Shown piece by piece: positions 6,501-38,691 of a DNA stretch of 64,000 nt. Made by a program: the position numbers and the translations under genes. A model generated the notes under the pieces. It saw nothing but the letters and a program-made list of their open reading frames with translations. It was not told where the DNA came from and searched no databases. Position 1 is the first letter of the stretch; each line of letters starts with the position of its first letter. The DNA lies in the NCBI GenBank assembly GCA_017654855.1, contig CM030337.1, positions 3,844,001 to 3,908,000 of the forward strand. The letters are read 5' to 3'. The DNA comes from Podospora anserina (Eukaryota).

Positions 6501-8869
6501 TCAGCAGAGATTGATTCGACCACACTTTGAGGTTATCGCTGTCACAAGCTTCTCCCACCATGGGTCCTTGTTCTCCCAAATCTCGTGCTCTTCGTCGTCA
6601 GTGCCAGCACCCCCGTCGTCTGCCTCATGATTCATTGCCTGTTCGGCCACCTTGCCCCTTCGCCTTTCATAACTGTCCAACCAACTCCATGCATGTTTGA
6701 GAGCCTCATAAGCAGGAGGAACATTGCCTCTGGGTCCCTTGCATATTGGATCGAACCACGATTTGATGGCCTGTCTATCAAGCTGGTCATAGGCCACGAG
6801 ACCTCCGATGAAAAGAGCGAAAAGCGGGGTTTGAGCCGTGAACAACGGCCCGGAAATGGGTTGATACTGCACAGTAAGAATAAGTCGAGCGAGAAGTTCC
6901 TTGATCACAGGGTCATCTCTTCTTCGACTAGCGATGGACACGATTTTTGTTAGACGGCACTGTCGAATACATGATGGAGAAGGTCAATAACGTACCGGAA
7001 AACCCTACATTGCAAGTATATTTGTGCGGCAGCAACGTAGCTCTCACCAATCAACTCAGTGACCTTGGCTTCCGTGTTGACCTTGCCCTTGTCGTTCAGC
7101 TCGCAGCTGTCGAGGAGCTCTTGAAATGTATTGTAGCCGTTCGAGAGCGCTGACCATTGCCGAAAGTTGCTGAGTATATCCTTGATGCCGTTGGCGGTAG
7201 CTAGTTGTGCCAGAGAGTATGGACGTCTGTCTCGCATGGAGGCCAAATACGTGATTTTGGCCAGGCAATACATCAAATCTGGAGAAAGCCCGGCAAACCC
7301 ATCGATTCGGCGGCACTCTCGCTCACTGCCTCTGATGAGCCAGTTGTAGCACTCAATGTCAGCACCTGGGTCGAGAGGGTGCACGCAATCACTGAGAACG
7401 CTGTCTAGGCACACTCGAATTGCTAGCTGGGACCGCGTCTTGGTAATCTGGGCATTCTTGGGATCTTGGTGGGTTCTAGCTGGATCCGATTGCCCAAGCA
7501 CTCGTTCGGCCACTTTCGCTCCCCGGTACCATTTTGGAGGCTCCTTCTGTGTAGACTTCATGTTGTCTCGGTTCCGGTCCCAAACGACTATCTGTCAAAG
7601 AAAACGTCAGCAGAGTGGAGCGAATCATCACTGAGTCCAAAGAGCTCACCTCGGTATGGCCCAGAAGGATAAGACAAGCAACCAAACTATCCCCGTTACC
7701 TGGTAAGCGATTTCTTGTGTCCTTGAGTTCTTGGCTTGTATGCCAAATAGCTTGCTGATGGTGATGGGTAGCAAGTTCTTTTGCCTTGTCTTCCGCAGAG
7801 TAGTCAAGAATATATGAAAGAGAAACCGACAACATGGCGTGCTTGACCGCGGGTGAGCTGTCCGCCATAGGTGCAATTTGGTTGAGATAGGCATTGTCAT
7901 TCTTGACAACTGTTCTCCCATTGCAGACAGCTTCGATAACTAAAACGAGACAGCACACGTAAGCTTGGAATACTCTGCTGGCATGGCACCATTGCGGGGC
8001 CAGTCGGGACACCTACAGAATTTGAAGAGATAACGATCAGACTTCTCAAACCTCCCGCTAAGTTGAACGTCACCGAATTGCGGTGGGGGTCGGATGATTT
8101 CACTCGGAATCAAATTCCCGGCGGCCCCGTTTCCACCGCCGCCATGGCGACTCTCTGACTCGGTGGGTGGAAAGTATCGGAAATGCACATTAAGCGCATG
8201 ACCTTGCTCATGACGTGGAGAACCATAAAGTGTAATTCTTGTTTTGATGAATCCGTCAAGCACGATACGACGACCTCTGCACTCTTCAACAATGCTGCGG
8301 CATCGGACAAGTGCATGGGGGTGGCTGCAGCTCCCTTCTTCTGATGCGTAAGGATTCTCCAGGTGAACCTCTTCCTGCTCCTGAGAAGATGTAGGGATCT
8401 TAGCCGGACCAGCCGGCACATGCTGCCGGGTATGGAGAGGTTCGACCCCTGCGGTATCTTCGTTGAGCAATTCTTCATAGCCTGTTCAAACTTGTTAGCG
8501 ACTATCTAGCGACGCGAAGATGGCTGGGCTCAACAAGCTCTTGACTTTATTGTACTTACTTCTCTTTCTGCCTTGGTTTGCAGACACGGGGCAAATGGAA
8601 TCGCTGTGCAGACCTGCAAGGTGGGTGGAATTAAGGTGGTTTCCGAGGCTATCGAGCCCTGGGAGTATGTCTTGGTGTGGCCAGGCGTACAGTTGAGTCC
8701 AGTGGAACATCTCATCGTCATCCGATATCATGAAGTTGTCATCCGGTCCGGCGTTTGAACCGTGGTCGTCCTCATGCTGATCATTGGGCGCGATAGCACG
8801 GACTGTCTCTTCAGTGTGGCGTGGTGTCCATGAACCACCGGATCGCGCGACCTTGGCAGCCCGCTCCAT
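6501..8869 (-). CDS. Fungal-specific transcription factor domain protein (PF11951-like), no Zn2Cys6 cluster visible
   Basis: Spliced ORFs 8495.., 7940.., 7476.., 6950.. and 6501.. contain NAYLNQIAPMADSSPAVKHAMLSVS, IDGFAGLSPDL, AAQIYLQCRVF and TPLFALFIGG. Canonical introns link them. Start uncertain. Confidence 0.75.
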
Positions 8870-19067: not shown

Positions 19068-20625
19068 ATGAGAATCTCTGTGTTGGCGGCTTTATTCTCC
19101 GGGGTGCTGGCTGCTGCCTCGCCAACACTTGACAGACGACGACAGCCTCTAACAAATGCAAACTCAACCGATCTAGCAAACATCGGCTTTGCAACTCAGA
19201 ATGGAGGGTGAGTGTTCTCTTCTGTCTCTATCTTCTTGAACAGCCTTTGACGCCACTCAGGACAACCGGTGGCCTCGGTGCCAATGCGACAACCGTTACT
19301 ACCCTTGCCGAGCTCAGTGCCGCCGTCTCGGAAACCAACCCACTGCCCGCCATAGTCTTCATTAAAGGAGCCATCACTGGTGCCACAAAGGTCAGAGTGG
19401 GGAGTAACAAAAGCATCATCGGCCTCCCTGGGTCATCCCTCAGGGGAATCGGCTTCATAATACGCCACCAAAAGAACGTCATCATCCGGAATCTTGTCTC
19501 GTCTCACGTCGTTGCCTCATTAGCTGAGGATGCCGTGAAGATTGACAGCAGCACCAACATATGGATTGATCACTGCGAGTTCTCCTCCGCTCTCGTTGCA
19601 GATAAAGACTATTATGATGGTCTTGTGGACGCCTCTCATGGTTCAGACTTCATCACGGTTTCCCAGTGAGCTCAACTTCCTTCATAAGATCGCAAGTAAA
19701 GCTAACCTAGAAAAGCACCTACTTCCACGACCATTGGAAGACGACTCTCGTAGGCCATTCCGACTCCAACGCCGCCCAAGACACCGGCAAACTTCGCATC
19801 ACCTACGCCAACAACTACTTCCGCAATATCAACTCCCGCGCCCCCCTCATCAGATTTGGCACAGCCCACATCTTCAACAATCTCTACGAAAGTGTTGGCA
19901 GCGCAATCAACACCCGCATGTCCGCCCAGGTCCTGGTTGAGTCCAATTACTTTCTGAATGTGACCACAGCAGTGACAAGCAAAGATTCGAAAGAAGTCGG
20001 ATATGCAAGGTTGGAGGATAATGTCTTTGGGAGGGCAGCCAGTAACGCGCCGGTGGGGAGCTTGACCAAACAGACGATTCCGTACGCGTATACTCTCTTG
20101 GGAAGTGGAAAGGTGCAAGGGGCAGTGCCCTTACAGGCGGGGGCGAGACTGAATGTTACCGTGCCGGTGCCTGTACAGCCAGAGCCAACAACGACTTCTT
20201 CGTCGACAACCACATCGCAGACAAGCATGTCCACTACAACAACTTTAGTGACCACCACGTCTGCTCCAATTACAACCACGTCGGTCATAAGCACCCCGAG
20301 TACGACTACATCGATTACTAGCATCATGGTCACTACCACCTTAGTCGAGTCGCCAACCACAGTCGAGCCAACAGTAGAGCCTACAACTACTGAGCCCACA
20401 ACAACCACTGAGCCAACCACTACCTCTGACCCAACCTCAGCAACTGAGCTGACTACTACCTCTGAGCCGACCCCAACAATGGAATCTCCCACTGAAGCCC
20501 CAACTACAGCAGAGCCTACAACAACAGCAGAACTGACAACAATGACCACAAACCCAGAGCCAACCGAGTCCACCGACCCGGACACCTCCCAACCAACCGA
20601 GACACCCAACCCCACCACACCATAG
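19068..20625 (+). CDS. Secreted pectate lyase (PL1) with Thr/Glu/Pro-rich C-terminal tail
   Basis: Signal peptide MRISVLAALFSGVLAAA; GFATQNGG|TTGG, VGSNKSIIG, NVIIRNL, NIWIDH, SRAPLIRFGTAHIFNN; followed by EPTT repeats. Confidence 0.92.
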
Positions 20626-20789
20626 TCAGTTCACTAGACAGTCATATCATCCAGCAATCAAGCAAATCACTCAAGTCAAAGCAGATATATTTTGCCATGA
20701 ATAGTCACAACCATAGATAGCTCCCCCTGCCAACCCCCCAGAGAGCCGTGACTACTACCCCTGCCACTCCAACCCATTTTCAAACCCAC

Positions 20790-21158
20790 TTAAACAGTAA
20801 CAGGCGTGCAGCCTCTAGGAGCAAAGCAGACAAAGCCAGGGGAGGCGCAGCAACGAGCATAAGAGGTGCCCTGGGCAAAGGTGAGGCCGTTGCAGAGCTA
20901 GGTATCCACTTTGTCAGCTTATTCCTGTCAGATATAGAAACACGTGAAAAAACAACGTACGGTGCCTCCGTTGCCCAAAGTCCCACCAACAGACCGGCAG
21001 CAGGTGGCCGTGTCAGGAGGGGGGGAGGGCTCGCCGCTGCCGGAGGAGCAGCCGCAGTCGTAGACGCAGGTCTGGCGCGCGTCGATCTCGCTGTCGGGCT
21101 GGGGAGCCGCCGAGACGAGGGCCGTGAGGGCGAGGATGAGGGTGGTGGTGAACTTCAT
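20790..21158 (-). CDS. Small secreted cysteine-rich protein (101 aa, 10 Cys, 2 exons)
   Basis: MKFTTTLILALTALVSAAP...DARQTCVYDCGC...TCC...GT|LCNG...RCC...VCFAPRGCTPVTV*. Intron GTACGT...GCTGAC...TAG; TATAAAA upstream (~21255). Confidence 0.85.
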
Positions 21159-21673
21159 CTTGAAGGTTTGTTCTCGTCGAAAGTGTTGTTTGAATAGTGC
21201 TTGAGAGGCTGATGATGAAAGAACTCCAAGTGAAGACGTGATCAGGCCTTTTATACTTTTCTCGAGCGTGATCGTGCCCCGCGGGAATAGAAACAACAAC
21301 TTCCACCGCGCCCATTGCCATCCCCTGTCACCTCGCACTCTGAGGCTCTATAGGATCTCGGACCCAAACATCCATCTTCACGATGACGACCGTATATTGC
21401 TTCCCTCGCCAATAGGACTGGTTCCGCTCTTGTAGATGCCTGTGCAGTTAGCATTAGCGCTCATGCTATCCCTCTTCTGTCTCATAGTCTCTGGGTGGTG
21501 CAACCATAGTCAAGTCTCATGATACAACTTTGTCAGCGGGAAACATGCTCTCACCGAGAACAACAACCAAGAAATGCAACATCAGTTGTATTGGTCTCAA
21601 AACAAGACCAAAATGTCCGAAGCATCCGGTGCTAACACAAGACAATCTAGTTAGACCCCTTCTTCAGCTCCAA

Positions 21674-23528
21674 TCACTGCTTCCTGCAGACCCTCCCATC
21701 ACCATCAAGCTCCCAGTCCTCACTACCCACAGCAGTCAAAGCGTAAAACACCCCCGTAGGATCCCACGTATCCTTCACATTCCTCAACTTCTTGTAATTC
21801 TCCAACCCATAAAACTGCTCCTGCCAATCCTCCTGCTCAAAGTTGGCCTCATTGAGATAACACCCACCCCCCGGCGTAGCGGCATCAAGAGCAGGCTGCA
21901 CCACCTCGGTCAAGGCCTTCTGCATCTTCATCATCTCCGCCCTGTCAATCGAGTAGTCCCACTTCCCCACAACAAGACAGAAAGCCATCGCATTCCTCCA
22001 AGCAGGATTCACAGAAGAAACCACCCCCTCCCTCAACCCAACCTTTGCACTCGACGCAACACACCCAAAAGTGAACCCCTTCTCCTGGATAGCCATCCTC
22101 ATCGTCGCAGTCAGATTCTTCCCCATCTCCTCATCCGACACCACCGCCCTGGGCAACAACCTCCCCCCCGTCACCTGCGAGACCGGATACCAGCCATACG
22201 GAATCGGCCCAAACGAAGCATTGTAATGCTCCAAAAACGTCTCCGACACCTTGGCCGAATACTCGTACTTCACCCCCCTCGCCGTCAAGTCATCCGTAAA
22301 AGGCTTCATCGCCGTGTCCACACACTCCGTCGTGTCACAGTCAGGAACAGTAACGCTATACGTCGTCAACGCGGGGACCTTCCTGTCAGGCCAGGCATAA
22401 ATCAGATAGACCAGACTGTTCCCCGCGTCAACAAACGGAATGGTCAAGTTCTGCAGTGAGCCGACAGCATCCCAAAAGGCGTTGACATCTTCTTTCTTGT
22501 CTGACGCGGCGGCAAAGGTAAAGTTGTTCGCACCGCCGACTTTTCTGTCCTCGAATAGGCGGGTGGTCATGCTGATGACAACACCGAACGTCCCGCCGCC
22601 GCCACCAGAAAGAGCAAAATACAGGTCTTGGTTTTCCTTCGGAGTGGCGGTGACAAGAGTGCCATTTGCTGTCACAACCTCCCACTCGAGGACGTTGTCA
22701 GCCGAAAGGCCATACTTGCTTGTGAGAATAGAGTGCCCTCCTCCCTGGGTATACCCTCCGGCCAAACCAACGGTGGGGCACGAGCCAGAGAGCGTGAGGT
22801 AGCCGGATTCCTTGAGGGAATCCAAAACATCAAAGCCTTGCACGCCAGCCCCGATCTTGACGGCGGGGCCGTTGTAGTCGTCACTGCTGTAGTCCTCGAT
22901 AATAGAGATGTTCTTGAGGTTGTGGGTCCAAAAGGAGAGGGCACCCTTGCCGGTGGACTTGCCGAGGTAATCGTGGCCTGTGTTCTTGATCACGACGCGG
23001 AGGTTGTGCTGGGTTGCAAAGGCGAGGCCGGCCTTGACGTCGTCGGCAGCGGTGTCGGTGGTGAGGTTGACAGCGTAGCTGACGTAGTTGCCGAGCTCAC
23101 ACTCTTGATCTACGGAGGTGAAAGGGTCACAAGTGGCGTTTTGGAAGATGGGCGCGTTGAACTCGACTGGTTCGACGAAGCTGTGTGTTGTGTTTAGTGG
23201 CTAACCCAACACAAATAGGGGGGTCAGCTTACTGAGTCTCGGGCCTATCCCAGCCTTCCCTCGCCTCGCCGCATCTCGTCTCATTGTAGATGTTGAAAGG
23301 CCCGTTGTGGCACACGGCAGCCAAGGGAACCGAGGCAATCAAGCGGCCACCAAGCGTCTCGTTCAGGGCTGACCAGTCACCGTCTCCTGGCCATGTGCTA
23401 TCACCAGGGATTAACTTGCAGCTGCTGGTGCCATTAAGACTATGCCCGGTGCCGTTCCAATTATGCCCGGGAGCGAGTGGGGTGAGTAACGACAACGCAG
23501 TCGTGGTGTAAAGTTGGTGGTTGACCAT
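21674..23528 (-). CDS. FAD-binding berberine-bridge-enzyme-like oxidase (AA7/VAO superfamily), probably secreted
   Basis: CKLIPGDSTWP, IKNTGHDYLGKSTGKGALSFWTH, CPTVGLAGGYTQGGGHS, FALSGGGGGTFGVV, GCYLNEA, WDPTGVFY. One intron near 23180-23232. Start uncertain. Confidence 0.9.
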
Positions 23529-31550: not shown

Positions 31551-32543
31551 TCACAACTCAATTACGACAACATCATTCGTCAACTTATTTTGTCTCCCCC
31601 CGACCACTGACGCATTGACAAACGTTGTCGCCTTGCTTGCGTCGCTCTTCCCAAACCCAATCACCCTCTTGGCCTTGTTCCAGCCCACCAATACCGCCAT
31701 CCAGGCCAGTGTTCCCCATCCGCCCCAACCGATCCTGATATCGTCATATGCCTCTCGCACCCTGTCGAGGACGACATCTACCCTCCCGTGCGCGGCGTGG
31801 ATGTGCCCGAATACGTGAAGCCGAGGTCGGAGTCGGGTGATTTCTTGCAGCAAGTAAGGACAGCCGGCTCGGTGAAAGTCCCTGCGGTCGAGGTAGAATT
31901 TTGGGGGCCCATGGGTGACTACGATCAGGTTGTCTTGCGGTGCCAAGGTTGCAAGCTTGGAGTTTTCCCAGAACTCAGGCGAGGGGTGATATTGAAACGC
32001 TGACGGGGTGTAGACTGGTGTGTAAGGGCTCCCGTATACCGTGACTCTTCTTTCGATCCCCTTTGTTACACCTTCGGGTTCGTGTGGTGCGGCCCTGGTG
32101 GGTAGAGTGATTGTCATCGTCGAGTCTTCAAGGTATGTCACACTTCCCCAATTCAAGTCGGCCTTTGTTCTCGTCGTCTCCCCATAGCGGCGGTCTGGAT
32201 ATCGCTCCAGAAATATTTCATCAAGCAAAACATCGTGGTTCCCTGCGATCAGTATCTTGTGGGGATGAGACTGGGATGAAAGCCAGTCAAGACCTGCCTG
32301 GACCTCGTCAAAGGAGCCACTCTCAGTCAGGTCGCCTGCATGGATGAGGATATCTCCAGGTGGGAGGACAGGTTGGTGGTTGTGCGTATCAGACACACAG
32401 ACTATCCGTATAGGGCTTTCATTCGGTTGCTCATTGGAGGTGGATAAAGCTGGCAAATTCGAGATATGGAGGTTCAAGAGCTTCGTCGTCAGGTCCAGCT
32501 TCCGCCGACAGCGTGTCTTGATGTTGATGGTTGGCTGCTGCAT
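31551..32543 (-). CDS. Calcineurin-like metallophosphoesterase (MPPED/239-like)
   Basis: All five motifs: VSDTH, HAGDLT, AGNHD, THGPP, FGHIH. First ATG at 32543 (the track start is a TTG). Confidence 0.9.
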   Translation of the reverse strand: MQQPTINIKTRCRRKLDLTTKLLNLHISNLPALSTSNEQPNESPIRIVCVSDTHNHQPVLPPGDILIHAGDLTESGSFDEVQAGLDWLSSQSHPHKILIAGNHDVLLDEIFLERYPDRRYGETTRTKADLNWGSVTYLEDSTMTITLPTRAAPHEPEGVTKGIERRVTVYGSPYTPVYTPSAFQYHPSPEFWENSKLATLAPQDNLIVVTHGPPKFYLDRRDFHRAGCPYLLQEITRLRPRLHVFGHIHAAHGRVDVVLDRVREAYDDIRIGWGGWGTLAWMAVLVGWNKAKRVIGFGKSDASKATTFVNASVVGGRQNKLTNDVVVIEL

Positions 32544-33381
32544 CGAGGCAAAATCCGCTTGCGCGTTTCTGGCAAAATAGGCGGTTGACCAAGGTTGTGT
32601 GCTTGGGTCTATATCCAAGCAACTCGAATTTGAAAGTTGATGCGAAATTTGCGTGATCGAGTTGTTTAAAGGTTTGTTGGTTCAACTGTTCACCTCATAC
32701 CATTCGATTGTTGGCTGACCAATCAGCGCAGCGTTTCTCTGTTCGGGCATTCAGCACAGTGCGGCATCTTTGACCGACCTTCATTGCAAATGTGGCGGGA
32801 TGGTGTCGATAACTGAGCCTAATTGTGATAAATCTAAAGTAGGACACTTCCAAGATAAGTAGTGGCCTATCTTTGTGAATACTGCTGGTATGGGTATTCA
32901 GTTACTTGCCTGATGTTCTGTTGAAGGTGGTAATGGGCAGCCCATACAGTGTCTGATCATCCAGCAAGCACTCAGCTCAACGTTCTAAGCGCGCGTTGTC
33001 AAGCACGACCCATGACATTGGTACTGTTGGTGACAGCTTGTTTGAGAACATATCGGTTGGTTCAAGCGTGTTATTCAACTGGTTCAGAATGGGTCTGATT
33101 CGGGGCATATCTTCTGTCGTCAATACTATCGCTGAAGTGTCCAAGATTTGGACCATGGTCCTGTAGTTTATTTTCACGTGGTTGGATCAATGTCTATTTT
33201 GAGCTCAGGATGAAATGGTTGGTGATGAGGACCTGGAAGTCAGAATCGTATAAGACAACGGGGGGTCTTGTAGCTTTTACTCATCTCAGATGATGTGGCT
33301 TCCCCAACCGAAGGGCATTGTCCGTACCTACATTTGTTTTTTCCTGGCATTATTATCTTCCACGTCGGTCAAGTCCATACC

Positions 33382-34149
33382 ATGGGCTGTGGCGGTAGCA
33401 AGCCTGCCAAAAAGAAGGGCTGCCAACCCGGGGGCGGAATCCAGATTGGCGCACCACAAGATGTGACTATTCACATTCCTCGAAACCGACTAGACGCTCA
33501 TGGCGTTCCAGTTAGGCCTGAGACGAGAGATATCAACGCCAACGTCTTGAAGCAGGCCCTCGAACGCGTCTCCCACTACATTGCGAGTCGGGGACACCAC
33601 ATCAGTGTCATCGCTGTTGGCGGAGCTGTCAACACACTCTACCTTCGCTCGCGACAAATGACCCACGACGTCGATATCTTCGGTTCCGACTTCAGCAACA
33701 GCGCCCGCCACCTCGTCGACGAAGCGATGCATGACGCACAAAGAGCTATACCAGGCCTGGGAACAGACTGGCTCAACACTGAAACTCAGATGTGGATGTC
33801 TGGTCGACTGCACGCAGAGATCACACAGGCTGCAAGAGCTCAAAACGTGATTGTCTTTCAGGGGAGGGATAGGGGTTTGACGATCTTGGCAGCTCCATGG
33901 GCATATGCATTTTCTGCAAAGATCAATCGCATCCTGACGGGAGGCAGCCAGGCACGACCGTATGACCTCCAGGATGCTGTCACGTATATCCATCGGTACA
34001 TTCAGGCGCATGGCAACAAACCTGTGCCGGTCAGGGTTGCGCTGGGATGGGCAAGACAGTATCATCATGAGATGACCGAGGATGTGTTGCGCAATCAGGT
34101 GAACCCAGCATATCGAAGACAGTATGGTGGTAAGAATGCGTTTGCCTGA
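33382..34149 (+). CDS. Putative nucleotidyltransferase (AbiEii/DUF6036-like fold; fungal DUF7582-like) with N-terminal MGCGGS lipidation motif
   Basis: VIAVGGAVNTLYLRSRQMTHDVDIF (GG + DxD), DWLN, AKINR...RPYDLQDA. Intronless; ATG in ACCATGG context. Confidence 0.75.
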   Translation: MGCGGSKPAKKKGCQPGGGIQIGAPQDVTIHIPRNRLDAHGVPVRPETRDINANVLKQALERVSHYIASRGHHISVIAVGGAVNTLYLRSRQMTHDVDIFGSDFSNSARHLVDEAMHDAQRAIPGLGTDWLNTETQMWMSGRLHAEITQAARAQNVIVFQGRDRGLTILAAPWAYAFSAKINRILTGGSQARPYDLQDAVTYIHRYIQAHGNKPVPVRVALGWARQYHHEMTEDVLRNQVNPAYRRQYGGKNAFA

Positions 34150-34587
34150 GGCTTTTCTTGTTACTTTCCATATGTCAATAGAGCTCGAGTACATGTTTAT
34201 GTGAATGGAGTTCTGGGCTTGATAATTCTGAATTGAATTAAAAGGAGCTCAGCAGTGAGTGATCAATGAATGACCCAATGCACGTTGCAGAGGACTGCTG
34301 AACTGCGTTGGTTGCAGCATCAAGGGCGCACACCTGGCACGGCGCCTAATTTCCAGGTTCCAGTCTGGGGTACCTTTTCCCCCCACTGTCTGTCACCAAC
34401 TGCCAAAAACGCAGACCTTCACATGCAACCCAACAACCACCACAGGCATAAAAGCAGGGCCATCGTGATTCACCCTTGCCCACAACCTTCAAAAACCAAC
34501 ACCCGTAACGCTTAAATCGGCCCATTTGCCGGTTTCTGAAACGCTCACCACCAAAACTCGACTTAACACGTATCCCATTCCGCAAAC

Positions 34588-35337
34588 ATGACATCTCCCG
34601 ATGGCAACAGAGCCAAAAGATTATGGGTCAAAGCTCGGGACACACTACGGAGCATACGCACTTTTCAATTCTCAGCCGCCGACCGCTTTGAAGAGGAGGA
34701 ATATGTTGCTCAAGACTCCGACTTTCCAACCTTTCCACCTCCGCCTCCCCGACAGATCCTGCAATCTCCTTCCACCTACCGCGACCAAATCCGCCAGCGC
34801 AAGTTTGCCTGCCCCCGCGGTGTCTTTGAGGACTCGCCCCTCTACGCGCTATACCGACTCTATGAATTCTTCCTCTTAGACGACCAAATAGCCTACCGCA
34901 ATGAGCTCGAAGCATTTTGGCGAAAGTCAGATCCTTCCTGGACTGTCTCCAAGATCCCAGACCCCAAAGTCGCCAATCCAGGATTTGACTCACCGGGTTT
35001 AACAGATCTTGAACGCCATGAACATTACGCCTTTTTGGCAGGGTGTACCTACATGCTGGTCAAGTCGTTCAACGCGCGTGTCAAGTTGGGGCTTAGCCGG
35101 CAGATGAGGTCACTCATGACCCCTGACGAGGCGGAAGCAGCTCGAAACGTGCCAATGGAAGAGAGAAGTTGGGAGAGTGTGCCAGAGTGGGCTGAGAATG
35201 TCCCGGCGTTGCCCGAGGTGTTGGTTGTTCCTACGCATGATGGAGAAGTGCTCACTAGACCGGAGGATATGAGAGCTGATGAGGACTTTTTGAAGAAGGG
35301 GATTTTGTTGTGGACGCCGCATATTTATTTTACTTGA
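34588..35337 (+). CDS. Hypothetical protein, 249 aa, conserved-looking; candidate partner of the upstream nucleotidyltransferase
   Basis: Intronless ORF with globular motifs DSPLYALYRLYE, IPDP, YAFLAG, SFNARVKLGL, VPEWAENVPAL, FLKKGIL. Confidence 0.75.
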   Translation: MTSPDGNRAKRLWVKARDTLRSIRTFQFSAADRFEEEEYVAQDSDFPTFPPPPPRQILQSPSTYRDQIRQRKFACPRGVFEDSPLYALYRLYEFFLLDDQIAYRNELEAFWRKSDPSWTVSKIPDPKVANPGFDSPGLTDLERHEHYAFLAGCTYMLVKSFNARVKLGLSRQMRSLMTPDEAEAARNVPMEERSWESVPEWAENVPALPEVLVVPTHDGEVLTRPEDMRADEDFLKKGILLWTPHIYFT

Positions 35338-35590
35338 CCATATGATGTATTCTCTGAGGTTCAACGTCAATAGTTGTATGTTATTCCAGTTGCTCAAGGG
35401 TGGCTATCCCTTTCACCCTTCATCCTCATTTCGATAACCATGACACGACGCCCATCTCCCAGTTTTCCAAACTGATGTCCCCGTGGGAAGGAAGGACGTT
35501 TTCTCATGTGCGAGGGAGGCTACTGGTCTCAAGGCCTGCAAGAGTATCTCAAGAATAAAACCGGTATCTTTGCTGCCTTGTTGCACGCAC

Positions 35591-37388
35591 CTAACCTGGT
35601 TCATATCCACTCTCATCATCGGCGTTGGCCCTGCGACTCTGACTGTCTTTTCTTGACCCACGGCGTTCACGTGGCAGCTTAGGCTGAAGTTCTGGACGTG
35701 TAGACTCCACCTCACTGTCGATGCGACTTCCCGTTGCGCCTCTTGATAGGCTCGGTTTGGCTTTGTGATGGCTGACGGGTGTGAAACCGTCTTGTATAAC
35801 CATATCTTGACTCCGTAACTCTTCATTTTCAAGTCTCGGTTGTGCATCCACAGGTGAACTTTGAGCATTGGACCGATGTTGGGCGGGACGATTTCGCTCT
35901 GCAAAGTGTGAGGGTTAGTAAAGCGATGCCTGCTCATTGTGGGTGGGTGGCTCGAGATTACCCTTGACAGCTTTGGTGAGATCCACATAGGACTTAATTT
36001 CCTCCTGTGAGAGAAATCTGTGCACGACGACGAAGCTTTCTATCGTATGAAACTCCTCCAGGCCTAGATCGAGTGCTTCAGGATCGACTAGTGAGCGACT
36101 GATTTTCGTCCATTTGTTTTGGCGAGGATCATTAATCTCCTCGCGATCCCACTCAGGAAACAGTTCAGGGAATTGTGCTCTCGGTTTCTTAAGAATTCCT
36201 TTCAGTGGCAGTGTCTTCTTGGCCTCATTCTGGCTAATCGTTGTGGTGGGCTCGTTGAATTTTGGTGTGAGCTTCTCTCCTAGTCGACCCCTAGCCTCTC
36301 CTTGGCCCTGATTCTCTTCTTGTCGTCTTTGTATTGGTGACGCTTCATCGTCATTCGATGGATCGGAGTTTCCCTCGCTCCGATCATCACTCTTCTTTTG
36401 CGGTCTTTGAAGGTTTATGCCATCTTCGCTATCTTCTGAAGGAGTCGACCCATCATCTGGCGAATCCCCATCGCCCCCACCGCCAACCTCATCATCTTCG
36501 CCAAATTTAGGCAGTGGAAAAAGCGCCAAATCACGCTGATGACGTGCTAGATGTCGGAAGTAGTCCTTAGCTGAGCTGAGCTTCTCCAGGCAAAGCTGGC
36601 ATGTGCACCTGACCCCGAGAGCTTTGGGCTTCCCGCATTCATCAATGACCATGTCCATATCTGATTCACTTAGGAACATCATGTGTAGGCCAACAACATG
36701 CGTTTTGAACTCGATTGTAGAGTCAAAGTGATCCCCGCAGCGGGGACAAGTCCATGTCTTCCAATGCTTGTTTAAAACATGCCGCATCCATTCGTTGCGT
36801 GTCTGAAAGTCGATTGTGGACATTGCGCAATCAGGAGACAAGCATATGTATGGTCTGAGATCGGCCAGCACATGCTTAGTCCATGTTCGGGTGGTTTTGG
36901 CCGTTATCATCATGTAGCACAATGGGCATTCAAACGGCCCATCAGCGGCAGCTTTAGGAATGGGGGGAATTCTCGGCCTATCCCCCGTAAACAAAGAGCT
37001 ATTGTATGTTGTATCTGTCCGTACTGAGACGGCATCATCCTCGTCTAGTACTGTCCGTTGCAATCTTGGCTTCATTTTGTTCTGATCTTTGAGACGATGC
37101 GGGATTGATGACGCGACGGTACTTTGTGCAGCTTCGTCGTCCTCGCTTCCCCCCTCAAGGCCATAGGCCAGCTTGTGGTGATGAAGCTCTCTGTACTTGA
37201 AGTACTGCCGCCGCCGAGAGATAGCCTTGCCCAAGCGTTCTCTGTCAGATGTGTTAGATAACGGAAACATGTCGCGGACATGTGCAATATCGCGCTCTTC
37301 GAAAAATGCAGCGTCCACCCAGTTCTTCTGTCTGAATCTGTCGTGGGGAGCCGGGTTCTGAATGGTCACAGACAACCGAAACAGGCAG
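35591..37388 (-). pseudogene. C2H2 zinc-finger protein gene, apparently 5'-truncated
   Basis: CLFRLSVTIQNPAPHDRF, RLGKAISRRRQYFKYR, FECPLC..WTKHVLADLRPYIC, further C2H2 fingers and KWTKISRSLVDPEAL. An intron near 35900-35961 leads to a last exon ending at 35591. Family-like sequence begins abruptly at ~37388. Confidence 0.6.
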
Positions 37389-37391
37389 TAT

Positions 37392-38691
37392 AGACGGGCT
37401 CTGTTTGTTTTACGACGTTCGGAATACCAACATGAGTTGTCCAGACTGAAGAACGGCATCTCAAGCCTTGAAGACTTATTGGAAATGAGTGTCGAACTAG
37501 AGCCGACTCGCCAACGTCGTTCGCAAGGGAAGGTCTACAAGCTACTGCGCGATGTCTCCGGGAGCATGTACGGAGCTATTCAATCAACAGTCACATGCAA
37601 ATGCCCTGGGCTTCACGATTTTGGGTTGAAGTTGATGAGCCGCCCCATCACTCATCTCCCACAATTCGACGAAGACGAAGAGGTCCTGGGAAGATTCAAG
37701 TTCTCTGTTGCTGTCTCCTCGACATCAACTGGATCTGATACTGGGGGGTTTCACTGGGGCGGCGCCAAAATATGGAATCTCTTGTCGCTGTCATTGTTGT
37801 CGCCAGCATCTAAAAGTCCCCAACATCCCACTGCAACATTGGCAACCGGTGTCAGATTTTCATCGTTGATGACGGCAGACAACCGTCAAAGCCAATCCCG
37901 CCAGTCGGTTGTTCTCGAGAGGATTGATAACCTGTGCCAGAGCATCCGGAAGTCTGGCAAGCAGGCGGCTGGTCAGTGCTGTGGGTGTATTCGTGACCCA
38001 GCACTATCAACTGCCAGGGCCTATCAAGTCTATCCGCTTGGGAACCCAAGCCAAGATGGTGACTGGAATCTAGTTCCCTTACGATCAGTTTTGTCAGGTG
38101 AAGTCCCAGCAGTCTCCCCTTTTCTTTATGGAGACAAGCTGTGGTTGGCCTGGACCATCGCCTCGAGCGTTGCCCAACTCGGGGGTACAGATTGGTAGGC
38201 CAAGTTCACGATCCCACGGCGTTCATATCATGGTTACTAATAACAGACTGGAATAAAGGTATTTTCGCCCACCTACGCATAACGACCTGTATTTAGCACG
38301 TCGGAATGGAGTGATACAGTTTAGAGAAGTGTTCGTTGTGAAACCCTTCCCTAATCTAAAGCCGGTTCTTCGGCCACCGCCAAACGCTACCCACCAAACC
38401 TTACTGACTCTCGGAGTACTTCTTATTGAAGTCATCTTTGGGCAAGTATTATCGAAAATCAGGCCAAAAAAGGCAGACCTTCAGAGCATCTTGTCCAGCT
38501 ATGAAGCTGTAATGCAGGTTCTCTCGACCGTCAACACATTGGGAGGACCAAACTACTACAAGGCGGTCAGGAAGTGTATCAAGTACGAAGTCTTTGACGA
38601 CAGCGGGATGGGAGGCAATGAGGGACAGAAAGATGTCTTCGTTGGAATACTAAATTTTCTGGAGCAAGATCTGGAGATGGCCATGGGTTAG
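37392..38691 (+). pseudogene. DUF7580-like protein gene, apparently 5'-truncated
   Basis: TCKCPGLH, IDNLCQSI, KLWLAWTIASSVAQLGGTDW|YF, LLTLGVLLIEVIFG, NYYKAVRKCI. Intron ~38195-38258. The N-terminal region expected for this family is missing. Confidence 0.55.

Follow-up and report, generated by a model that had tools for sequence, protein, structure and literature searches.

A 64,000-nt stretch of Podospora anserina contig CM030337.1 (assembly GCA_017654855.1, positions 3,844,001 to 3,908,000 of the forward strand; hereafter the window) contains two neighbouring genes that an initial annotation had read as a candidate toxin–antitoxin-like cassette: gene 1, encoding a putative nucleotidyltransferase, and gene 2, encoding an uncharacterised partner. 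We find that the unit at this locus consists of three genes, namely gene 1, gene 2 and a phosphoesterase gene that lies head-to-head with gene 1 (Table 1). This trio stays linked in Sordariomycetes, Dothideomycetes and Eurotiomycetes, with different genes on its flanks.

Table 1. Features of the three-gene unit in the window and in metagenome loci. Residue numbers refer to the window proteins; aa, amino acids.
Sequence	Position	Strand	Feature	Basis
Window	31551..32543	-	MPPED2-like metallophosphoesterase, 330 aa, third cluster member, divergent from gene 1	Pfam, 3rl4_A match
Window	32544..33381	.	Divergent intergenic region, 838 bp, candidate bidirectional promoter	Between phosphoesterase and gene 1
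Window	33382..34149	+	Gene 1: DUF7582 protein, predicted MenT/AbiEii/DUF6036-like nucleotidyltransferase fold, 255 aa	Pfam, model, structural alignment
Window	33382..33402	+	N-terminal MGCGGSK of gene 1: putative myristoylation-type signal (Gly2, Ser6), Cys3, then basic stretch	Relatives' N-termini
Window	33619..33675	+	Predicted catalytic core of gene 1, G80-G81 (hG[GS]) to T94-H-D96-V-D98 ([DE]h[DE]h, conserved Thr before)	Alignment
Window	33919..33975	+	C-terminal helices of gene 1 with K180, R183, R192, D195, D198 (putative DUF1814 motif 3/4 counterparts)	Alignment, model
Window	34150..34587	.	Spacer between genes 1 and 2, 438 bp, likely start of gene 2 transcript (weak hint)	Contig starts
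Window	34588..35337	+	Gene 2: conserved fungal protein, no known family or fold, 249 aa	Relatives, model
Window	34720..34749	+	FPxFPPPPP stretch of gene 2, residues 45–54	P47, F49, P50, P51, P54 in at least 90% of 66 rows
Window	35311..35334	+	Strictly C-terminal WTPHIxFT of gene 2	W242, T243, P244, H245, F248, T249 in at least 90% of 66 rows
L002	3543-4088	+	Gene 2	
L002	4984-4310	-	Gene 1	
L002	5827-6805	+	Phosphoesterase	
L003	5001-5540	+	Gene 2	
L003	6355-5627	-	Gene 1	
L003	7211-7975	+	Phosphoesterase (cut by locus end)	
L004	5037-5570	+	Gene 2	
L004	6400-5735	-	Gene 1; locus ends at 7124, before any phosphoesterase position	
L005	5001-5598	+	Gene 2	

Linkage and descent of the three genes

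The two genes are present as initially annotated, co-oriented, intronless and 438 bp apart, as ATG-to-stop open reading frames (ORFs) in the ORF listing. The motifs attributed to them are all found in the translations: VGGAV (79–83), THDVD (94–98), DWLN (129–132) and K180..R183..R192.YD195..D198 in gene 1, and IPDP, YAFLA, VPEW and FLKKGI in gene 2. The intronless models are reasonable, since each ORF can be aligned from its first to its last residue with fungal proteins of equal size. The idea of one gene with an intron is ruled out, as each ORF has its own stop and start and matches full-length stand-alone proteins, and the two lie on opposite strands in L002–L004. What the two-gene tandem captured is the pairing, which recurs in fungi; it missed the third gene on the opposite strand, and the tandem orientation is not kept. 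Each gene of the pair occurs once within the window.

Several lines of evidence support the linkage. First, eight named species from three classes have genes 1 and 2 under locus tags or accessions that follow directly on each other (Triangularia verruculosa, Thermocarpiscus australiensis, Zarea fungicola, Apiosordaria backusii, Sphaceloma murrayae, Onygenales sp. PD_12, Arachnomyces sp. PD_36 and Blastomyces percursus). The tags of gene 1 and the phosphoesterase gene are likewise consecutive in five species (Thermocarpiscus, Parachaetomium inaequale, Claviceps sorghi, C. africana and Cosmosporella) and those of gene 2 and the phosphoesterase gene in three (Diaporthe citri, Apiospora rasikravindrae and Hirsutella minnesotensis), with the latter two tags lying two apart in Fusarium kuroshium.

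Second, matches to the three genes tend to share contig sizes. At least 24 of the 81 gene 2 matches lie on a contig of exactly the same size as some gene 1 match and, of the 64 gene 2 matches on contigs of at least 3 kb, at least 38 are size-matched to a contig carrying gene 1 or the phosphoesterase. At least 13 contig sizes are common to matches of all three genes, five of them between 11.7 and 39 kb.

Third, genes 1 and 2 are neighbours in three of the four metagenome loci that have about 4–5 kb on each side of gene 2 (L002–L005; L006 is too short for linkage). The head-to-head arrangement of the phosphoesterase gene and gene 1, with a spacer of about 0.8 kb, is kept in L002, L003 and the window. 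Gene 2 is placed past the 3′ end of gene 1, in tandem with it in the window and convergently in L002, L003 and L004. When window positions 20001–46000 were compared in six frames with all six loci (L001–L006), only the three genes matched: the locus proteins are 44–67% identical to those of the window, and all flanking genes differ. Given the consecutive tags in eight species and the proximity in these loci, the pairing of genes 1 and 2 is more than chance; whether their homologs stay adjacent across fungi, which the initial annotation had left to be checked, is answered by linkage in three classes.

Finally, we asked how gene 2 descended, using a maximum-likelihood tree of 30 rows restricted to named sequences (53 of the 81 relatives are unnamed and stand outside it). 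The two basidiomycetes fall outside on very long branches, Eurotiomycetes form a basal grade and a supported clade (100/99) unites Sordariomycetes with one dothideomycete, Sphaceloma; within it the window sequence groups with Cercophora, Triangularia and Apiosordaria (100/100). Because this tree follows taxonomy, it suggests that the descent of gene 2 has been broadly vertical. Together with the strong conservation of both proteins, it speaks against the patchy, mobile or fast-evolving distribution that had been envisaged for the pair.

Gene 1 and its predicted nucleotidyltransferase fold

Gene 1 belongs to the Pfam family DUF7582 (PF24483), scoring 45.8 bits where the curated cut-off is 27 (E = 5.7e-12), with residues 55–250 aligned to positions 7–199 of a profile of 200, and 55 of the 65 aligned relatives match the same family. 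A total of 98 fungal relatives were found, the best at 89% identity and 100% coverage; the 90% cluster of this best match also holds proteins from Cercophora samala, Apiosordaria backusii, Podospora comata and P. bellae-mahoneyi. The mean column identity of the alignment is 34%. Weak hidden Markov model (HMM) matches among the relatives, to DUF2204 in 24 of 65 (best E = 1e-6) and to DUF6036 in 6 of 65 at E ≤ 0.01, span the GG...DxD core, and bacterial DUF6036 proteins make up the nearest named ESM Atlas clusters once DUF7582 is excluded (score 0.93; 17 and 11 of 30 matches). A single-sequence search of the PDB with gene 1 returned noise only (E = 0.4 and 2.2), a PDB profile search with its relatives gave no matches, a pattern scan of prokaryotic genomes gave 33 stretches of which none was confirmed, and tblastn found no relatives in plasmids.

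As a separate observation, DUF7582 proteins of Podospora australis, Rhypophila decipiens, Dichotomopilus funicola and Mycothermus thermophilus are 40–55% identical to gene 1. Because these Sordariales copies are less alike to gene 1 than the Eurotiomycete orthologues are, they suggest, by sequence identity, the existence of paralogous DUF7582 lineages. The Rhypophila copy and one phosphoesterase match lie on contigs of equal size (172,657).

An AlphaFold model of gene 1 built on the alignment of its relatives reached a predicted local distance difference test score (pLDDT) of 91.9 and a predicted template modelling score of 0.84. When this model was aligned to PDB representatives with VIA-align, nine chains scored Z ≥ 5, eight of them nucleotidyltransferases: MenT1 (8.2), a Paracoccidioides brasiliensis nucleotidyltransferase-like protein (7.9), TglT/MenT3 (7.1), ANT(2'') (6.9), MenT4 (6.4), TM1012 (6.3), JHP933 (6.1) and LnuA (5.3). 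The one remaining chain is the AbiEi antitoxin (6.2), and the next row, at 4.9, is unrelated. Because the top structural rows are consistent and the sequence motifs accord with them, we consider the assignment of the modelled protein to a Pol-β-type nucleotidyltransferase fold to be firm. The Pol-β-like nucleotidyltransferase of the initial annotation is thereby borne out, with MenT toxins as its nearest solved relatives.

The likeness to the MenT/AbiEii group extends over the same two-lobed fold, with 164–169 aligned residues for MenT1 (8an4), TglT/MenT3 (6j7n) and MenT4 (6y56), and over encoding beside a conserved partner gene. The order of motifs also appears to be the same, with hG[GS], then S/T-x-D-x-D, then putative counterparts of the Lys and Asp in C-terminal helices, following the motifs laid out in PMC7205606. 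There are clear differences. Gene 1 is eukaryotic, belongs to a unit for which the gene 2 tree suggests vertical inheritance, lacks an AbiEii/DUF1814 Pfam match, shares only 8–18% identity with the solved MenT-type chains and begins with a lipid-anchor-type N-terminus; gene 2 matches neither AbiEi nor any other solved chain at Z ≥ 5; and, unlike MenAT, the fungal unit has a phosphoesterase as a third member and no contig that bridges genes 1 and 2.

The P. brasiliensis protein (5uvd), a nucleotidyltransferase-like antigen, is fungal and has the same fold as the gene 1 model over 171 aligned residues, at 13–14% identity; in a sequence search, the profile made from relatives of gene 1 misses it. 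Coitinho et al. 2019 is reportedly the paper on this antigen. Bacterial DUF6036 and archaeal and bacterial DUF2204 proteins, whose function is not established, share with the gene 1 family the weak HMM match over the GG...DxD core. In a side observation, AbiEi chain 6y8q_A (Z = 6.2, 139 residues) and Rv2827c chain 1zel_B (Z = 3.8, 145 residues) align with the gene 1 model, so the C-terminal domains of these two antitoxins may share an architecture with the nucleotidyltransferase fold.

Because the full catalytic set of the MenT/AbiEii/DUF6036 branch appears to be present, gene 1 is predicted to be active as a transferase. In the gene 1 alignment, G80/G81 are kept in 64 of 65 rows, T94 in 64, D96 in 63 and D98 in 60; further towards the C-terminus, K180 and R183 are each kept in 62 of 65, R192 in 63 and D195 and D198 in all 65. 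The model places helices at residues 173–186 and 195–209. C-terminal motifs 3 (catalytic Lys) and 4 (Asp) are exclusive to DUF1814, and K180 and D195/D198 are their putative counterparts.

T94 lies two residues before the first catalytic Asp, D96, just as S78 of TglT lies two residues before D80/D82. Phosphorylation of S78 neutralises TglT/MenT3 according to PMC7205606, and MenT1 is phosphorylated at T39 according to the title of PDB entry 8rr5. PMC11375011 adds that auto-phosphorylation of MenT1 and MenT3 is induced by antitoxin and that the Ser/Thr at the MenT phospho-site is strictly conserved.

The N-terminus of gene 1 is a further conserved element. Among the 98 relatives, 69 start with MG; 57 of these 69 have Ser or Thr at position 6, and 61 of 69 have a Cys in residues 3–8. 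Most of the other 29 begin further in and resemble truncated models. The MGxxxS start with its Cys is probably a membrane-anchor (lipidation) signal, because it fits the N-myristoyltransferase consensus and the Cys-palmitoylation pattern known from Src-family kinases and G-alpha subunits.

The companions of gene 1 and the surrounding sequence

Gene 2 has 81 relatives, four of them at 72–97% identity and 100% coverage, and a profile search of 1.84 billion representatives gave 492 proteins at E ≤ 1e-3. The named members are all fungal: those among the 81 relatives are without exception ascomycetes of the Sordariomycetes, Dothideomycetes and Eurotiomycetes, and of ten distant representatives the two named clusters are both basidiomycete (Piloderma croceum and Exidia glandulosa). 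The alignment of 66 rows has a mean column identity of 47% and 12 invariant columns. Almost all gene 2 proteins end at the WTPHIxFT block, which is absent from two basidiomycete relatives. The model of gene 2 (pLDDT 88.7) shows a basic N-terminal helix, and the FPxFPPPPP block is modelled at high pLDDT.

No counterpart of gene 2 emerged from the collections searched. It matched no Pfam, NCBIfam or PADLOC family, and none recurs among the 66 relatives scanned; PADLOC gave no match for gene 1 either. Against solved structures, Foldseek gave a best E of 1.6 in the PDB and VIA a best Z of 4.5, with none of 48,161 representatives at Z ≥ 5; the best Foldseek E in BFVD was 0.44, a sequence search of the PDB gave no match, and the best ESM Atlas score, 0.83, lies below the level treated as meaningful. 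A pattern scan of 185,579 prokaryotic genomes gave 78 stretches, none confirmed, and tblastn found no relatives in 72,556 plasmids. The structure library searched includes AbiEi (6y8q) and Rv2827c (MenA4, 1zel), neither of which matches gene 2 at Z ≥ 5, a missing match that is compatible with distant kinship. The likeness to partner proteins of actinobacterial DUF6036 enzymes, which the initial annotation had proposed from motif order, thus found no support in family, prokaryotic relatives or fold.

Two other identities for gene 2 were considered. The label 'DNA-binding protein' carried by some relatives was not adopted, since no DNA-binding family was found among 66 members. A HEPN-type toxin of a HEPN–MNT pair, for which the motif is Rx4-6H, was ruled out because the conserved residues include no such motif and no HEPN fold matched. 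A complex prediction for gene 1 with gene 2 gave a score of 0.00 and a mark of 0.34, in runs in which alignments were unused and the fold of a partner was uncertain at least once; these values carry no weight for or against an interaction.

The third gene, by its sequence, encodes an MPPED2-like metallophosphoesterase. It matches Pfam Metallophos (PF00149) at 48.6 bits against a cut-off of 21.5 (E = 1.7e-12), its residues 44–255 match rat MPPED2 chain 3rl4_A at E = 5.1e-28 and its metal-binding motifs are intact (DTH52, GD63/GD70, GNHD101 and GHIH246). It shares the Metallophos family and the DxH, GD, GNHD and GHxH motifs with MPPED2 (239FB), from which it differs by a Trp-rich C-terminal extension and by its place head-to-head with a nucleotidyltransferase gene. 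Among ten long relatives of gene 2, two proved to be models in which it is fused with a Metallophos domain. A Trp-rich segment (GWGGW....WM.VLV.W, residues ~269–290, window ~31680–31740, minus strand) occurs in 97 of 120 phosphoesterase relatives, within the extension that MPPED2 lacks; with no more than moderate hydropathy (1.08 over 19 residues), the segment resembles an interfacial helix rather than a clear membrane-spanning one.

Contigs from four public runs of four studies, which are only guessed to be RNA, overlie the locus; their depth cannot rank genes, nor can they prove the start of a transcript. Gene 2 is fully covered, with no joint and no gap, by contigs that begin at 34425, 34430, 34434 and 34440, which is a weak hint that its transcript starts within the 438-bp spacer. 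Gene 1 is covered by short fragments in two of the four runs, one of them starting at 33253, and no contig in the four runs spans both genes; this fragmentary cover and the uncovered stretches at 32770–33180 and 34140–34413 are uninformative on expression. Contigs over the phosphoesterase gene end at 32633–32653 in all four runs. In two runs, 3.9 kb contigs over this gene extend about 2.6 kb leftwards past 31400, so its 3′ end may abut or overlap the transcript of the next gene. The runs differ from the window at 34703 (A in the window, G in all four runs), which would replace Tyr39 by Cys near the N-terminus of gene 2, where the protein is variable, and at 35384 (T in the window, G in two runs), downstream of the gene 2 stop; both are probably strain differences.

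Just downstream of gene 2, an ORF on the minus strand (35915–37459, 514 aa) has weak matches to DUF629 (E = 8.3e-6) and CpXC (E = 6.8e-4) that correspond to a zinc-finger-like Cys/His region. Because it has no counterpart in loci L001–L006, it lies outside the conserved cluster. Further away, the minus-strand ORF at 21677–22570 encodes a berberine-bridge-enzyme (BBE) C-terminal domain (E = 3.9e-12) in a stretch of marked GC and AT skew (20001–22000), with tandem repeats of 18 and 36 bp nearby at 20383–20542.

Readings of the locus

We read the locus as a conserved, regulated three-gene nucleotidyl-transfer module of filamentous ascomycetes, built around an active nucleotidyltransferase, and give this reading a probability of roughly one half. 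In it, gene 1 would most likely transfer a nucleotide monophosphate from a nucleoside triphosphate to a hydroxyl group. By analogy with MenT, the likeliest acceptor would be an RNA 3′ end, with a protein or a small molecule as other candidates. The N-terminal MGxxxS and Cys would tether the enzyme to a membrane, and the enzyme would probably be held in check by phosphorylation at T94, since 64 of 65 relatives have a Thr at the position at which MenT is switched off. The phosphoesterase would oppose gene 1, by cutting the nucleotidyl phosphodiester product or a nucleotide or by removing the inhibitory phosphate. Gene 2, judged from its linkage, may be a regulatory partner or a target of the enzyme. 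The trio looks like a cellular module and not like a mobile toxin–antitoxin cassette.

Several observations weigh against this reading. The evidence for adjacency includes proxies: JGI-style tag numbers may not be positional, and both tags and equal contig sizes stand in for direct linkage. In L005, neither gene 1 nor the phosphoesterase gene lies within about 4–5 kb of gene 2, which sits between an amino-acid permease gene and a β-lactamase-family gene; in L001, the 1.4 kb that follow gene 2 contain no gene 1, and only 0.5 kb are present upstream. No shared regulatory sequence emerged: the one 11-mer common to both intergenic regions of the window is within the range of shuffles, and the divergent promoters of the window, L002, L003 and L004 have no k-mer of 8 or more in common, nor any above shuffles. 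The structural matches are modest as well. Foldseek found nothing in the PDB for gene 1 at E ≤ 0.001 (best MenT1 at 0.061 and the P. brasiliensis protein at 0.11), and a Z of about 8 is moderate and, by the note of VIA-align itself, common for models without a clear match.

The residue assignments and the family label call for similar caution. The putative correspondence of K180 and D195/D198 to TglT K189/D208 is a match by order and spacing alone, and that of T94 to the MenT phospho-site is a match by spacing. Gene 1 falls below the cut-offs of DUF2204 (PF09970; 18.1 versus 20.3 bits, E = 0.0022) and DUF6036 (PF19502; 11.6 versus 23.6 bits, E = 0.24), and AbiEii (PF08843) is matched neither by gene 1 at E ≤ 1 nor by its 65 relatives at E ≤ 0.01. 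The 'AbiEii/DUF6036-type' label therefore holds only for the nearest non-fungal look-alikes, which are bacterial DUF6036 proteins; by sequence, gene 1 is kin to DUF6036 at the level of the superfamily and not a member of it. MPPED2-type enzymes, moreover, are nucleotide phosphodiesterases and are not known to be protein phosphatases.

One rival is the cassette originally proposed, in the form of a true toxin–antidote pair. Gene 1 would be a MenT-like toxin that nucleotidylates tRNA 3′ ends and blocks translation, gene 2 would neutralise it by binding it or by inducing auto-phosphorylation of T94, the phosphoesterase would release or reverse the block, and the whole would serve regulated cell death, allorecognition or antiviral defence. 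We regard this as unlikely, even though the nearest solved folds of gene 1 are the toxins MenT1, MenT3 and MenT4, gene 2 is persistently linked to gene 1 and the contigs over gene 2 are deeper than the gene 1 fragments (contig depth being unable to rank genes). The catalytic set appears intact, with a Thr at the position of the MenT phospho-site as described in PMC7205606 and PMC11375011, and a partner of novel fold is no contradiction, MenA antitoxins being structurally unrelated to one another according to PMC11375011. Set against this, hallmarks of a selfish or mobile element are lacking, the tree of gene 2 accords with taxonomy, conservation is strong in both proteins (mean column identities as given above, 34% and 47%) and each gene occurs once in the window. 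Gene 2 has no relative among known antitoxins or the prokaryotes searched, and in L005 no gene 1 lies in its neighbourhood. The idea of a selfish or mobile cassette is further at odds with the lack of a contig bridging genes 1 and 2 and with the presence of a third conserved gene.

It is similarly doubtful that the three genes are adjacent without a shared function, as neighbours by descent or through a shared chromatin or promoter context, each engaged in an unrelated process. The lack of a shared promoter motif, the gene 2 of L005 living elsewhere and the varying orientation of gene 2 between lineages would all be expected. Of a 26-kb stretch, however, only these three genes are kept in loci whose proteins are 44–67% identical and whose flanks differ, the linkage spans three classes of Pezizomycotina, and an inversion has left gene 2 beside gene 1, a sign of selection for proximity.

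A nucleotide-signal module, in which gene 1 would make a messenger, the phosphodiesterase would degrade it and gene 2 would sense it or act as executor at the membrane, seems rather improbable to us. The layout of a nucleotidyltransferase head-to-head with an MPPED2-type phosphodiesterase, kept across loci, the lipid-anchor-type N-terminus of gene 1 and the basic N-terminal helix in the gene 2 model would suit it. The structural neighbours of gene 1, however, are transferases acting on RNA, antibiotics or unknown substrates, none of them a cyclic-nucleotide or oligonucleotide synthase, and gene 2 resembles no known nucleotide sensor. Very unlikely, finally, is a small-molecule nucleotidylyltransferase that inactivates or modifies a metabolite or antibiotic, as ANT(2'') and LnuA do, and is tied to its neighbours by shared regulation only: the nine best structural matches of gene 1 do include ANT(2'')-Ia (Z = 6.9) and LnuA (Z = 5.3), but MenT-type proteins score higher, a lipid anchor and a conserved trio with a novel protein are unexpected for a simple resistance enzyme, and no biosynthetic cluster is visible, as the flanking genes are not conserved.

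A bolder reading can also be drawn, to which we assign only a small chance. Gene 1 might be the domesticated descendant of MenT/AbiEii-type bacterial toxins, kept by filamentous fungi for hundreds of millions of years as a membrane-tethered switch with a phospho-controlled writer (gene 1), an eraser or activator (the phosphoesterase) and a regulator or target of new fold (gene 2), which would shut down translation or trigger cell death on infection, encounter with non-self or stress.

MenT/AbiEii-type nucleotidyltransferases are bacterial toxins that block translation and abort phage infection. The DUF1814 superfamily also occurs in fungi, according to PMC7205606 and PMC11375011. Our full-text literature search found no study of a fungal MenT/AbiEii-type member, and no papers on DUF7582, on DUF6036 or on MPPED2 with a nucleotidyltransferase. 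The locus therefore offers a concrete and testable eukaryotic case, with a predicted intact enzyme, a putative lipid-anchor signal, a Thr at the presumed MenT control site and two conserved companions. One of these, gene 2, has a confident model without counterpart among solved structures and is a candidate new fold.

The trio is present in the Podospora group, and Podospora serves in the laboratory as a model of cell death and allorecognition in fungi; relatives of genes 1 and 2 also occur in several pathogen genera. If the module proves to be a regulated switch of translation or cell death, it would link bacterial toxin–antitoxin biochemistry to fungal cell biology. If it is a housekeeping unit instead, two families of unknown function would gain a role.

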